Of a stretch of 24,197 bases of DNA, positions 5,293 to 8,418 are shown piece after piece. Position 1 is the stretch's first letter. Each line of letters opens with the position of its first letter. This DNA comes from a virus. Lineage: Duplodnaviria; Heunggongvirae; Uroviricota; Caudoviricetes. A program made the position numbers and the translations under genes. The notes under the pieces were generated by a model that had not been told where the DNA came from, searched no databases, and saw only the letters and a list, made by a program, of their open reading frames with translations. The stretch covers positions 1-24,197 of IMG/VR virus record IMGVR_UViG_2619619133_000006; one strand, given 5' to 3'.

Positions 5293-5840
5293 GCGTTAGT
5301 TTCTCCACAGTCACGACACGCCACGGCGCCCGGAGCTGCACACTCGCGGGCGTCATTACTTTCTGAAATGCAAAAAATTTTGTAGACCAGTGCTGCATGC
5401 TCCTGCAGCTTCGAAATTGAGAGGTACAGCTCATCGTTAATTGCTGTCTTCTCATGCGGTTCCACTACACCGTCTTCAATTGCTGAACGAATCTGTTTTG
5501 AATAACTGCCGATCTGTTCAATGACTTCCAGCAGACGTTGGTTGATATCGGCGTTGTCCACATCCTCGACATCAGGAAGAGACACAAAGACGCCATTTGC
5601 AGACTGCGCCACAGCGTCAGCAATGAAGTGAGTTCCACCAGCACGTTGTAAAATCATTGCCCATCCCAGCGGGAAAATTTGATCGCCATCGGCACGAAGG
5701 CGATTAAATAATGCGTTCTCTGTTACATCCAGCCAGTCAGCTGCTTCAGCGTAACCCCCCGGCAACGCTGCGATAGTTTTTCTGACAGCTTTCACGTACC
5801 ACTCAGGCTGTTTTTCTACTTTCCAGTGATGCTTACCCAC
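5289..5840 (-). CDS. Hypothetical early regulatory protein (in the CII/YdaT position)
   Basis: 183-aa ORF directly downstream of the Cro-like gene with an overlapping start. Assignment by position only. Confidence 0.4.
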
Positions 5841-6093
5841 GGTTCACCTCCTGTTCCTGTGGTTTAAACCCATTCTGGTTTTGGCTAGATTGAAAACGTG
5901 CCGGATAAAGAATCTGCATTTCGCTGACTTCACCCTTAAAAAAATTGGCTAAACGTTCTGCAAGCTCGATAGATGGAATCTGCTCCAGCCTCTCAATACG
6001 ACTCAACGTCGCTGGATTGACTTGAACACCCGCAGCAACATGCTGCAAAGTGAAACCATGCGCCTTACGCACATTTCGTAATGGTGATTGCAT
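5833..6093 (-). CDS. Cro-like HTH (XRE-family) regulator
   Basis: 86-aa ORF divergent from the repressor gene; HTH segment HGFTLQHVAAGVQVNPATLSRIERLEQIPSIELAERLANFF; GGAGGG RBS upstream. Confidence 0.6.
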   Translation of the reverse strand: MQSPLRNVRKAHGFTLQHVAAGVQVNPATLSRIERLEQIPSIELAERLANFFKGEVSEMQILYPARFQSSQNQNGFKPQEQEVNRG

Positions 6094-6107: not shown

Positions 6108-6170
6108 TTGCGCGTTATGCATGTTATTTCACGCAATTATTTTGCGCAAGTTGATTTGCTTATCACGCAA
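6108..6170. promoter_or_regulatory. Right operator region (OR-like) between cro-like and cI-like genes
   Basis: TTGC-N7-GCAA at 6156-6170 (perfect), TTGC-N7-GCAT at 6108-6122, palindrome TTGCGCAA at 6142-6149; lies in the 97-bp divergent intergenic region. Confidence 0.45.
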
Positions 6171-6190: not shown

Positions 6191-6883
6191 ATGAACATAG
6201 GAAACCGAGTCAGACAACTTCGCCAAGCGAAGAACATGAAAATCGCCGATCTCGCTGAAGCAATAGGAGTAGATGCGGCGAACATCTCGCGCTTAGAAAC
6301 GGGTAAGCAAAAACAATTTACCGAACAAACACTGAGTAATATTGCCAAGAGCTTAGGTGTTGATATTGCTGATCTCTTTACCTCTGCCCACAAAAGTAAT
6401 ACTGTATATAAAAACAGTAATGATGAGGATGTTGCGCAGGTGAAGGATGTGTTCCGTATTGAAATGCTGGATATCAGTGCCAGTGCGGGAAATGGCCTTA
6501 TCCAGGGCGGTGATGTCATTGATGTGATTCATGCCATCGAATACAGAACTGATAATGCTGTATCAATGTTCGGCGGACGACCAGCCAATCACATCAAAGT
6601 TATCAACGTTCGTGGGGACAGTATGTGTCCAACCATTGAGCCAGGAGATCTCATCTTCGTTGATGTCAGCATCAATCAGTTTGATGGTGATGGTATATAT
6701 GTCTTTGGTTTTGATGACAAAATATACGTTAAAAGACTTCAAATGATTCCTGACAAACTGCTGGTGATTTCTGATAACCAGATTTACCGTGAATGGGGAA
6801 TTACTAGCGAAAACGAACACCGATTCATGGTCTTTGGAAAGGTCTTAATCAGTCAGTCGCAAACCCTTAAGAGACATAATTAA
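6191..6883 (+). CDS. CI-like prophage repressor (N-terminal XRE HTH plus C-terminal S24 LexA-like autopeptidase)
   Basis: 230-aa ORF; HTH IADLAEAIGVDAANISRLETGKQ; S24 motifs GDSMCPTIEPGDLIFVD and IYVKRL (Ser/Lys dyad); divergent from the cro-like gene. Confidence 0.8.
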   Translation: MNIGNRVRQLRQAKNMKIADLAEAIGVDAANISRLETGKQKQFTEQTLSNIAKSLGVDIADLFTSAHKSNTVYKNSNDEDVAQVKDVFRIEMLDISASAGNGLIQGGDVIDVIHAIEYRTDNAVSMFGGRPANHIKVINVRGDSMCPTIEPGDLIFVDVSINQFDGDGIYVFGFDDKIYVKRLQMIPDKLLVISDNQIYREWGITSENEHRFMVFGKVLISQSQTLKRHN

Positions 6884-6901: not shown

Positions 6902-6923
6902 GGCCACCGAAAGGTGGCTTTTT
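6902..6923 (+). terminator. Intrinsic terminator after the repressor gene
   Basis: Stem ggccacc / ggtggc with GAAA loop, followed by TTTTT. Confidence 0.6.
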
Positions 6924-6936
6924 ATTACCTATCAAT

Positions 6937-6973
6937 TTGCATATTCCGCAAATATCACTTGCATATCTCGCAA
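6937..6973. promoter_or_regulatory. Left operator region (OL-like): two TTGC-N7-GCAA sites
   Basis: Perfect TTGC-N7-GCAA at 6937-6951 and 6959-6973, centres 22 bp apart; same core as the OR sites. Confidence 0.45.
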
Positions 6974-7159
6974 TTTAATTTTATCTTTTGTTCCAGACCA
7001 ACTACAGGATTACAACAAAATCTGGTTGCAACACGGTGCATGTGTCGTAAGCAGTCAGTAAATGTCAAAAACGAACAGGCAGGACGCCCACGAAGTAGCC
7101 GCCTGGGGCATATGAAGTCCAGGATGATTCGTTGAGTCATGTTGTGCCACTAGGCACTC

Positions 7160-7456
7160 ATGTTAAAGCAGGTGTATGAAATGAAAGTCCAGATTTTAAA
7201 CAATAACTGTGAAGTCGTTTGGTCATACGACATAGCCGCCCCTGTAGATCAGAGCGGCGATAGCTGGACCAATGGGAAACATCAGATTATGGCTGGAGTT
7301 GTGTTCTCTTTACGCCGTGCTTTGGAACAGGCTGAAGTATTTCCATCAGACCCTGAATGGAAATGGCCTTTTTCTATTTGTCCAAATTCGGAGAGTACAT
7401 TTCAGAAAATTGGTCAGAAAGTCGCACTCGAAGAGCATCAGCCAACTGTTTCCTGA
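7160..7456 (+). CDS. Hypothetical protein (early-left region)
   Basis: 98-aa ORF downstream of the putative OL/pL; no recognisable motif. Confidence 0.3.
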   Translation: MLKQVYEMKVQILNNNCEVVWSYDIAAPVDQSGDSWTNGKHQIMAGVVFSLRRALEQAEVFPSDPEWKWPFSICPNSESTFQKIGQKVALEEHQPTVS

Positions 7457-7873
7457 TTTTTTCAGGTAACTCGTCGGCATCGCAGAAACAACAACGCTCG
7501 ATCATGTTGAAAGCCGATTCGTAGAACTGTTTCTGCTGAGTGTCGCTGAGACAGGAAAAGAGCGACGTTACGATGATTTTATTAATGCATTATCAAGTTC
7601 TTTTTCATCAAAAGTCATTTGATTTTCCTTTTATGTATACGGGCTTAAAAGGATACCACCGAGCCTGAAGTGGTGAAAAGACAGGCACATAACAGCTAAG
7701 TATTTTCAACCAAAGAGAATCCTTAGCGTTGTGGTGAATGCGGCTCAGCGCACGCGGGTTAAGGTTGAGGCTGACAGTCGACCTTCTGTAGATACCCACC
7801 CGCCTGGTGTGCAACCTTCGCCAGGCACCGGGAGGCACCCGGCACCACAACTTTATGCTGTGTGTAGTCCTGG

Positions 7874-7919
7874 CGGTACCAGTTTGTACCCTTGCTTCCG
7901 GCTGGTACCGTTCTTTTTA
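7874..7919 (+). terminator. Terminator-like hairpin (9-bp stem, large loop) followed by TTCTTTTT
   Basis: cggtaccag (7874-7882) pairs with ctggtaccg (7902-7910), then a T-rich run. The 19-nt loop makes this uncertain. Confidence 0.3.
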
Positions 7920-8007
7920 CAAAACAGAGAAGAGCATCACCGGACGACGGGCTCATAAACCAATCCATCCGGGCGGCTGCCACCGCAGGTGTTCTTCTCT
8001 GTTTTGT
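7919..8007. repeat. Long inverted repeat (15-bp perfect arms, 55-nt spacer) just upstream of the yfdP-like gene
   Basis: acaaaacagagaaga (7919-7933) is the exact reverse complement of tcttctctgttttgt (7993-8007). Confidence 0.6.
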
Positions 8008-8055
8008 GGAGAAACTAATCGGCCTTGCAGGGTCGATATGATGAGGAGCAGCAAA

Positions 8056-8418
8056 ATGGCTAGCGAACGCAGTACTGATGTGCAGGCATTTATCGGGGAG
8101 CTGGACGGCGGCGTATTTGAAACCAAAATCGGCGCAGTTCTCAGTGAAGTCGCTTCCGGTGTGATGAACACGAAAACCAAAGGTAAGGTCTCACTCAACC
8201 TGGAAATCGAACCATTTGATGAGAACCGTGTGAAAATCAAACACAAACTCTCATATGTTCGCCCGACTAACCGCGGGAAAATTTCCGAAGAAGACACCAC
8301 CGAAACGCCGATGTATGTCAATCGCGGTGGTCGCCTGACTATTCTGCAGGAAGACCAGGGACAGTTACTGACTCTTGCCGGTGAACCTGACGGAAAACTC
8401 CGCGCAGCAGGTCGTTAA
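8056..8418 (+). CDS. yfdP: YfdP-like prophage protein
   Basis: 120-aa product from the ATG at 8056 with AGGAG RBS; the track ORF 7807-8418 extends upstream through non-protein-like sequence. Length and position before the yfdQ-like gene match CPS-53 as recalled. Confidence 0.45.
   Translation: MASERSTDVQAFIGELDGGVFETKIGAVLSEVASGVMNTKTKGKVSLNLEIEPFDENRVKIKHKLSYVRPTNRGKISEEDTTETPMYVNRGGRLTILQEDQGQLLTLAGEPDGKLRAAGR

Follow-up and report, generated by a model that had tools for sequence, protein, structure and literature searches.

The window analysed here is a 24,197-nucleotide stretch of viral DNA (positions 1 to 24,197 of IMG/VR record IMGVR_UViG_2619619133_000006), which by its sequence is a lambdoid prophage of the SfV / mEp460 / ST64B type, and our subject is the GC-rich block at 7731-8010 that precedes its yfdP-like gene. 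The block consists of two separate plus-strand RNA modules, A (7728-7918) and B (7915-8011), and is part of an untranslated plus-strand RNA region of about 400 nt, built of separable modules, on the early-left arm between the cI-side genes and yfdP. The explanation that we judge best, with a probability of roughly 0.7, is that the region comprises a small-RNA gene, a gating terminator and a structured yfdP leader.

An initial annotation had described the block as GC-rich, rich in dyads and without a protein-like frame, and had proposed a structured leader, a terminator or antiterminator, or a small RNA controlling a yfdPQRST-like operon. The composition is as described: the GC content is 57.1% at 7731-8010 and 43.1% over the whole window, and GC-rich dyads lie at 7728-7736/7843-7851 (9 of 9 positions paired), at 7874-7882/7902-7910 (9 of 9, then TTCTTTTT) and at 7828-7842 (CCGGG/CCCGG). 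The perfect 15-bp inverted repeat on which that annotation centred is also present, as ACAAAACAGAGAAGA (7919-7933) and TCTTCTCTGTTTTGT (7993-8007); its spacer is 59 nt rather than 55, and its end, placed about 50 bp before the yfdP start, is 48 nt before the ATG (8056-8058). It is the sole perfect inverted repeat of at least 13 nt with a spacer of at most 100 nt in the window, and block-shuffled windows contained a mean of 0.2 inverted repeats of at least 12 nt. RNAfold of 7700-8060 gave a z-score of -4.47. All three proposed kinds of element, leader, terminator and small RNA, turn out to be present, but the inverted repeat is not the terminator: no U-tract follows it, and GGAGAAAC comes after.

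The probable small RNA and its terminator

The assignment of module A draws on sRNA-17 of E. coli K1 RS218, a 193-nt RNA mapped by rapid amplification of cDNA ends (RACE) and Northern blotting in an mEp460-like prophage (PMC7719688). We reconstructed its ends from the supplementary alignment of that paper and the mEp460 sequence. The 5' end is the first G of GTTGTGGTGAATGCG (GTTGTGG…) and corresponds to 7728 in the window; the 3' end found by RACE lies in the T-run after CGGTACCAG…CTGGTACCG, corresponding to 7911-7918, which places the two elements at the same locus upstream of yfdP with the same ends. They share their position between the cI-side genes and yfdP, the first 15 nt (GTTGTGGTGAATGCG), the closing helix …CACCACAAC and the terminator, and their lengths are 193 nt as measured for sRNA-17 and about 189 nt as predicted for the RNA of the window. 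Identity to mEp460 is 96.8% over 7871-8060, which takes in the terminator and everything downstream. In contrast, the cloverleaf interior of about 100 nt is unrelated, the window carrying an interior of the SfV/ST64B type. A mosaic junction lies at about 7871: the similarity of mEp460, cdtI and many Stx2 phages to the window begins only at this point (the terminator), and the cloverleaf interior upstream of it is common to the window, SfV, SfII, SfIV and ST64B. By this comparison, 7728-7918 is probably the counterpart of sRNA-17 in the same position, a small-RNA gene with its own terminator.

Deletion of sRNA-17 raised yfdP RNA by 2^6.58 (about 95-fold) and yfdR RNA as well (Table 1 in PMC7719688), so the region affects downstream expression. 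The simplest reading of this rise is one in cis, in which the terminator directly upstream of yfdP was lost. The suggestion that the block controls the yfdP operon finds support in the homologue. The inverted repeat is not specific to that operon, because its relatives also sit directly after phage tRNA genes, away from yfdP.

The putative terminator of the small RNA (7874-7918, plus strand) has the form of an intrinsic terminator: a perfect 9-bp GC-rich stem, CGGTACCAG (7874-7882) with CTGGTACCG (7902-7910), runs into TTCTTTTT (7911-7918). A terminator scan of the window missed this hairpin because its loop exceeds 8 nt. Most related loci keep a hairpin and a T-run at the same position, with a stem of different sequence. 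A conserved, single-stranded linker, TTTATGCTGTGTGTAGTCCTGG (7852-7873, plus strand), stands between the cloverleaf and the terminator, and most yfdP-linked loci retain TGCTGTGTGTAGTC, even where a tRNA takes the place of module A; a search within the window for an antisense target complementary to the linker found none beyond chance. CGGCACCAC, on the 3' strand of the closing-helix region of module A, resembles the terminator 5' arm CGGTACCAG. A terminator/antiterminator switch operating through CGGCACCAC is disfavoured, since the terminator stem varies freely while module A, a tRNA or nothing precedes it, and no conserved alternative pairing between a terminator and an antiterminator was found; this part of the earlier proposal we set aside. 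Many relatives (L131, L147, L150, L153, L155 and L141), but not the window, have a conserved insert, …GGAGGATGAAGATAATGTTCTG…, in the terminator hairpin, which looks like a ribosome-binding site (RBS) with a mini-open reading frame of 5 codons, or like a -10 box (GATAAT).

The core of module A (7728-7851, plus strand) appears to be a cloverleaf-like five-way junction, as indicated by its predicted fold, a match to the Rfam family STnc100 and comparison across its own family. The 9-bp closing helix pairs GTTGTGGTG (7728-7736) with CACCACAAC (7843-7851); within it, arms occupy 7740-7755, 7756-7797, 7802-7826 and 7828-7842, the last of which (CCGGG-AGGCA-CCCGG) stacks directly on the 3' strand of the closing helix. 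An E-value-based Rfam scan of 7500-8150 returned a full-length match to STnc100 (RF02076, model positions 1-206) at 7706-7920, with 40.7 bits and E = 2.1e-7. The other matches in that scan (ftsZ-DE, MIR5998, cyano-S1 and the hairpin ribozyme) we dismissed as chance. A gathering-mode Rfam scan of the whole window gave no match, STnc100 included, and the sRNA-17 region of mEp460 gave no Rfam match at E-values up to 1.

The consensus architecture of STnc100 is nevertheless recognizable in the window, with a closing helix, a CCGGGAGGCACCCGG hairpin beside its 3' strand and a 3' terminator hairpin followed by a U-run. Module A and STnc100 have in common the closing helix UGGUGAAU…CACCA, an identical 22-nt CACCGGGAGGCACCCGGCACCA, the multi-arm topology, the 3' terminator and carriage by prophages; their other arms differ, and the canonical STnc100 copies, unlike module A in the window, are late-region elements that follow stx2B or lie close to Fels-1 genes. 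STnc100 is also named EcOnc27/sRNA103, and EcOnc27, the Stx-phage copy downstream of stx2B, is an Hfq-binding small RNA (PMC12711010); the family has been reported to be structurally related to PasD (2026 preprint, bioRxiv 10.64898/2026.05.13.724894). Module A would accordingly rank as a sub-threshold relative of STnc100 and probably as a variant of a published kind of prophage small RNA (sRNA-17 / STnc100-like).

A scan of viral contigs for GTTGYGGTGAATGCG found at least 120 loci. Across these matches the family shares its 5' end, the D-like hairpin, the hairpin beside the 3' strand and the 3' strand itself (CACCRCAAC); the interiors, about 20 to about 150 nt long, have no sequence relationship to one another. 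When the two ends were joined and aligned, the closing helix had many C-to-U or A-to-G changes on one side only, by which pairing is retained as G.U on this strand, and five pairs had changes on both sides; the phage P1 copy has a compensatory GTTGCGGTG/CACCGCAAC in this helix. No conserved ligand-binding core, as expected of a riboswitch with a terminator platform, was found before the terminator: the interior of module A is hypervariable, and a tRNA or nothing can replace the module there.

Module B, a three-way junction RNA before yfdP

The inverted repeat belongs to module B (7915-8011, plus strand), which folds as a three-way junction. Its outer helix of about 24 bp, G.U pairs included, joins 7915-7938 to 7988-8011 around the perfect core at 7919-7933/7993-8007. 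Inside it, helix P2 (7940-7944/7968-7972) encloses a near-invariant 19-nt loop, ACGGGCTCATAAACCAATC (7947-7965), and P3 pairs 7973-7976 with 7983-7986. RNAfold gave 7915-8012 a free energy of -49.1 kcal/mol (z = -7.7), and none of 200 shuffled sequences did as well.

We collected homologues of module B in two ways, through the loop motif in viral contigs and through the YfdP protein in one genome per species, the second set being unbiased as to the RNA. An alignment of 28 sequences (A1) has the long outer helix, P2 with its 19-nt loop and a P3 of variable length, and 97.4% of its cells are paired, with both-sided changes in 10 pairs (46 cells), a strong covariation that extends over prophages of Enterobacteriaceae. 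Not one of 500 shuffles reached this level, and controls in which the partner was slid along were 35-52% paired. One pair is U.G in 21 of the 28 sequences. With the covariance model, the window has a single copy, which reaches 112.6 bits on the plus strand, the minus-strand score being 36.2. Because of the U.G pair and the plus-strand score, we take module B to be an RNA on the yfdP strand and not a DNA palindrome. In 19 of the 30 YfdP-anchored loci it lies on the yfdP strand and ends about 37 nt before the start codon, about half of the module B sequences from this set having been in the model's seed alignment. The genera that carry it include Mangrovibacter, Enterobacter, Atlantibacter, Leclercia, Kosakonia, Phytobacter and Pseudocitrobacter. 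No family matched in an E-value-based scan of Rfam 15, and no paper came up when the literature was searched for the conserved sequences. As a conserved RNA motif, module B is well supported, and it appears undescribed.

The loop of module B has the consensus ACGGGCUCAUAACCCAAUC, in which the window has A for the first C of CCC. Pairing of GGG with CCC in the loop is not strict (GGG/ACC in the window, GGG/TCC in Klebsiella), and some loci have a loop with CUCAUUC (CTCATTC) or GG-only variants. The CUGAUGA of a short Klebsiella form recalls a hammerhead core; it is absent from the yfdP-type copies, and a ribozyme was rejected. Loops of the UUGCAG type, like that of a hairpin just before the yfdP RBS, occur again in P3 of module B and in certain variants of module A. 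The 3' end of module B, GTTTTGTGGAGAA, repeats the start of module A, GTTGTGGTGAAT, and module B runs directly into module A in phage P1 and in locus L066. The parts of the region also occur apart from one another: Buttiauxella has module A and neither the terminator nor module B, two small contigs have the terminator without module B, and Providencia has only a long hairpin in place of module B.

Proposed mechanism and competing explanations

Transcription coming from the immunity side would yield a small RNA of about 189 nt and would mostly halt at 7911-7918. The terminator would thereby insulate or gate the yfdPQRST-xis-int operon, with only read-through carrying yfdP, as the deletion phenotype of the homologue suggests. 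Read-through transcripts would have a leader that opens with the autonomously folding module B, continues into a second hairpin beside the RBS (hairpin C, 8020-8035) and then reaches yfdP. The least certain step is the role of module B, for which RNA processing or stability is a tentative proposal: its helix of about 24 bp could be a site of double-strand-specific cleavage, or a 5' protective structure that parts the small RNA from the mRNA. The layout recalls the early-left leader of lambda (nutL, an RNase III site before N, and tL1) and putL of HK022, in that a structured untranslated RNA and a terminator separate an early-left promoter under repressor control from the opening gene of an operon ending in xis and int. 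The long duplex in the leader of the first gene is comparable to the RNase III-sensitive hairpin before lambda N. As differences, no boxB or N was noticed in the window, no search having been aimed at N, the region has no similarity to put, and its upstream module would, by analogy with sRNA-17, be released as a stable small RNA. The structures, their conservation, their covariation and their strand are observed here, and the discrete RNA and the derepression of yfdP were observed in the homologue (PMC7719688).

Several points weigh against this account. The study of sRNA-17 attributes its effects to regulation in trans and to an ArcA-controlled promoter, and does not say whether the deletion took out the terminator (PMC7719688). 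Module A is not identical to the 193-nt sRNA-17 over its full length, BLAST aligning the two only from 7871, and the discrete RNA that was mapped for the homologue is only predicted for the variant in the window. The fold of the whole of module A has a modest z-score of -1.97; its STnc100 match lies below the gathering score of 47 bits, so that membership by score fails, and none of 37 related loci reaches the STnc100 threshold in Rfam scans. The 3' strand of the closing helix was picked by pairing, which makes the percentage of paired positions circular there. Finally, a role in yfdP mRNA is not required of module B, as there are tRNA-linked relatives without yfdP downstream.

If the account holds, it would change how a common piece of DNA is read. 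The 7600-8060 stretch is matched in 2,785 of 5,426 complete E. coli genomes, about half of those searched, yet existing annotation gives it no feature, hypothetical proteins or a frameshifted pseudogene; these entries are corrected once a small-RNA gene, a terminator and a structured leader are recognized. The account also supplies an explanation in cis for the rise in yfdP RNA after deletion of sRNA-17, and it points to a likely barrier between lysogenic transcription and an early-left operon that ends in excision genes. Module B ties prophage leaders to phage tRNA arrays, and the wider family of module A, with its conserved ends and hypervariable interior, is mostly invisible to the current Rfam model.

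The links to tRNA genes feed the alternative that survives best, which we still regard as unlikely: that both modules derive from tRNAs and, instead of forming a classical leader, are handled by proteins that process or bind tRNA. Module A would then be a tRNA-like scaffold, with an acceptor-like helix, a D-like hairpin, cargo arms, a T-like hairpin and a 5' end made by RNase P, and module B would be a tRNA-sized decoy or binding site without a D arm and with an initiator-anticodon-like loop. The five-way junction of module A has the topology of a class II tRNA, its last hairpin abutting the 3' strand of the closing helix, and sRNA-17, as mapped, starts precisely at the first base of that helix. 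In Phytobacter ursingii (L143 / L148), the place of module A, about 200-280 nt ahead of yfdP, is taken by a gene that ARAGORN calls tRNA-Ile(AAT); beyond it come the linker, terminator, module B and yfdP as in the window. Klebsiella-type phages carry a short form of module B, in 11 distinct variants, 6 nt after a tRNA-Asn, tRNA-Arg or tRNA-Thr gene; its P2 and P3 covary, and its outer helix is followed by (A/G)CCA. In one array (L062) the short form takes the place of the tRNA-Met(CAU) of a related array (L196), and L196 itself has a variant of module A in the same frame, beside tRNA-Arg and tRNA-Met, with a canonical T arm, GGTGGTTCGACTCCACT. GGGCUCAUAACCC and the common form of the module B loop, GGGCTCATAACCC, equal what we take to be the anticodon arm of the E. 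coli initiator tRNA (tRNA-fMet), and the CUCAUAA of the loop holds a CAU 'anticodon'.

Against these likenesses stand the differences from tRNA. Neither ARAGORN nor the Rfam tRNA model detects a tRNA in the window, the helix lengths and loops of the modules are non-canonical, the T-like loop AGGCA of the window is not a T-loop, and the long, yfdP-type module B has no CCA. The GGG:CCC pairing in the loop is not strictly kept, and the tmRNA-clan match of the L196 variant is weak (E = 0.04), far below threshold.

The tRNA-rich ban operon of phage P1 (L006, NC_005856) contains, at L006 2429-2630 and at a second site in the locus, unannotated copies of module A (70077-70206 in the record), among them a second A-like copy, ATTGTGGTGAATGCACAGGC…CCATCACAGT. 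A small module B in the same operon runs into module A and overlaps the start of the annotated upl open reading frame. The modules are thus interchangeable with tRNA genes or adjacent to them, and a tRNA origin of both is plausible. A broader idea, to which we give somewhat less credence than to the handling by tRNA proteins, is that lambdoid and P1-like phages carry a shuffled set of tRNA-derived RNA modules, with module A as scaffold and module B as mimic. Module A, its ends conserved and its cargo arm hypervariable, would then be nature's counterpart of the 'tRNA scaffold' engineered for expressing small RNAs; module B could be a decoy or docking site for readers of the anticodon arm, such as VapC-type anticodon nucleases or the 30S P site, and the repeat in the window would be a long-stem mimic before an operon ending in xis and int.

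A quite improbable alternative to the small-RNA gene and gating terminator is that the block is a processive antitermination signal of the early-left operon, either a put-like RNA acting on RNA polymerase itself or a nut/rrn-like boxA that recruits NusB/NusE, by which polymerase passes the terminator and avoids Rho in the long untranslated stretch. The block does lie downstream of a candidate early-left promoter and upstream of a terminator, like HK022 putL and lambda nutL (PMC9378689), and no N-like gene was noticed among the open reading frames here, no search having been aimed at one. A check for lambda-type nut elements found a boxA-like motif (CGCTCTTA-like) as GTGCTCTTT before module A in many relatives (P1, L141, L133, L140 and mEp460), and the motif recurs in the 3' arm of module B as GGTGCTCTTCTG. 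In the window, however, it is degenerate, reading AATCCTTA before module A and GTTCTTCT in module B, where it is buried in the 24-bp helix. The put RNA has another architecture, two stems in about 70 nt; blastn-short against the HK022 immunity region returned only chance words of 8-13 nt, and the putL region, read directly, had no similarity. Moreover, the homologous terminator yields a discrete small RNA, and loss of that RNA by deletion brings a strong rise in yfdP (PMC7719688), which indicates efficient termination under the conditions of that study.

The coding question bears on a further alternative, in which the block is a decayed protein-coding gene and its dyads are incidental. PGAP calls a 'frameshifted hypothetical protein' at 7731-8041 in a genome 99.3% identical to the window, several phage records annotate hypothetical proteins at the block, and open reading frames of 49-80 aa (among them 75, 74 and 49 aa) overlap it, which qualifies the statement that it held no protein-like frame. 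These frames carry no coding signal, however, and in that sense the statement stands. Among 20 close variants aligned with MAFFT, substitutions by codon position number 11/5/9 and 14/9/7 in the two main overlapping frames, and third-position substitutions are not in excess in any overlapping frame; the variants also differ by indels of 1, 7 and 8 nt. In more distant relatives, neither the strand nor the phase of the open frames is constant, and a Pfam search of the overlapping frames gave no match. Both-sided changes keep the RNA helices, and one homologue, sRNA-17, is a mapped noncoding RNA (PMC7719688). The PGAP pseudogene lacks a coding signal and the block is not a gene remnant; we give the decayed gene next to no credence.

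Equally hard to credit is that the inverted repeat acts as DNA, as a protein-binding palindrome, a cruciform, a recombination site or the end of a mobile element: its dyad is long and perfect, the mosaic junction at about 7871 is nearby, and modules A, B and tRNAs seem to be shuffled at conserved boundary sequences, but many pairs exist as G.U on the plus strand alone and would be A-C mismatches in DNA or on the other strand, the yfdP strand is the one strongly favoured by the covariance model at each locus, the interior hairpins and loop are conserved although a simple palindrome has no need of them, there is one copy per window, and no target-site duplications were noticed.

Prophage setting and flanking elements

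Over 7600-8060 the window is 99.1% identical to Shigella phage SfV. The gene order is cro / cI / orf33 / block / yfdP, yfdQ, yfdR. By the list of open reading frames and the PGAP annotation, a cro-like gene lies at 5833-6093 on the strand opposite to yfdP and a cI-like repressor of the LexA family at 6191-6883, the latter followed by a hairpin and T-run at 6902-6919 (cI terminator). An orf33-like frame (7160-7456, plus strand) stands between the cI side and the block. The yfdP gene has an RBS, GAGGAG, at 8043-8048 and a coding sequence at 8056-8418 on the plus strand (the list of reading frames, PGAP and the SfV annotation); it is the first gene of the yfdPQRST-like operon, which in SfV runs on to xis and int.

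A tentative early-left operator and promoter occupies 6937-6987 on the plus strand. Two operator-like sites of the form TTGC-N7-GCAA lie there (6937-6951 and 6959-6973), and TTGCAT (6959-6964), a 17-nt spacer and TATCTT (6982-6987) make a candidate promoter that overlaps the last of them. The window has five TTGC-N7-GCAA sites against 0.79 expected; three of the five are in the cro/cI divergent region (6156-6170) or just past the cI terminator (6937 and 6959). The same layout of operator-like sites and promoter is seen in mEp460, and a promoter scan of the window did not call the candidate, whose hexamers are weak. Together these sites suggest an early-left operator and promoter near 6959-6987 that would transcribe toward the block.

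Directly before the RBS, the GGAGAAACTAA tract and hairpin C (together 8008-8035, plus strand; the hairpin, at 8020-8035, reads CGGCC-TTGCAG-GGTCG) are conserved as judged by eye. By the same comparison, most yfdP-linked loci retain both GGAGAAACTAAC and a hairpin whose loop is TGCAG or GGCAG immediately ahead of the RBS; at the RNA level, the tract GGAGAAACUAA follows module B and precedes a hairpin with a UGCAG-type loop in most loci. The stems of hairpin C vary among relatives (GGCGG/CCGCC, CGCCC/GGGCG and GGCTG/CAGCC).

Two further elements flank the small RNA on its 5' side. Immediately before it, an inverted repeat, GCTAAGTATTTTC / GAGAATCCTTAGC, forms a hairpin at 7695-7727 (plus strand) in the predicted fold. 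Farther upstream, at 7652-7686 on the plus strand, a pseudoknot-like element pairs ACCAC with GTGGT and its loop GCCTG with CAGGC; by eye, the element can also be seen ahead of yfdP in Kosakonia, Atlantibacter, Limnobaculum and further loci, with a compensatory GCCGG/CCGGC in Limnobaculum. In Kosakonia sp. S29 (L150) it stands directly before the linker and terminator, without module A. The terminator scan flagged this element on the minus strand.

Upstream of these elements, a short minus-strand reading frame of about 16 codons occupies 7571-7618, with its ATG at 7618 after AAGGAAAA. The sole promoter-like site from the promoter scan (7618-7589, minus strand) is also there, and both are directed away from the block; frame and site may be the remnant of a longer gene found in relatives. 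In ST64B (L003), the minus strand of positions 19-95 matches Rfam isrK (RF01394) at 64.3 bits, above threshold, inside the annotated sb41 frame and about 2.4 kb from the ST64B copy of the yfdP leader. The CPS-53 prophage of E. coli K-12 (L159) is without the whole leader, homology beginning only about 20 nt before yfdP, and has instead tandem copies of a CAGATTTTGACGGGT-like repeat upstream of that gene (L159 7400-7520).

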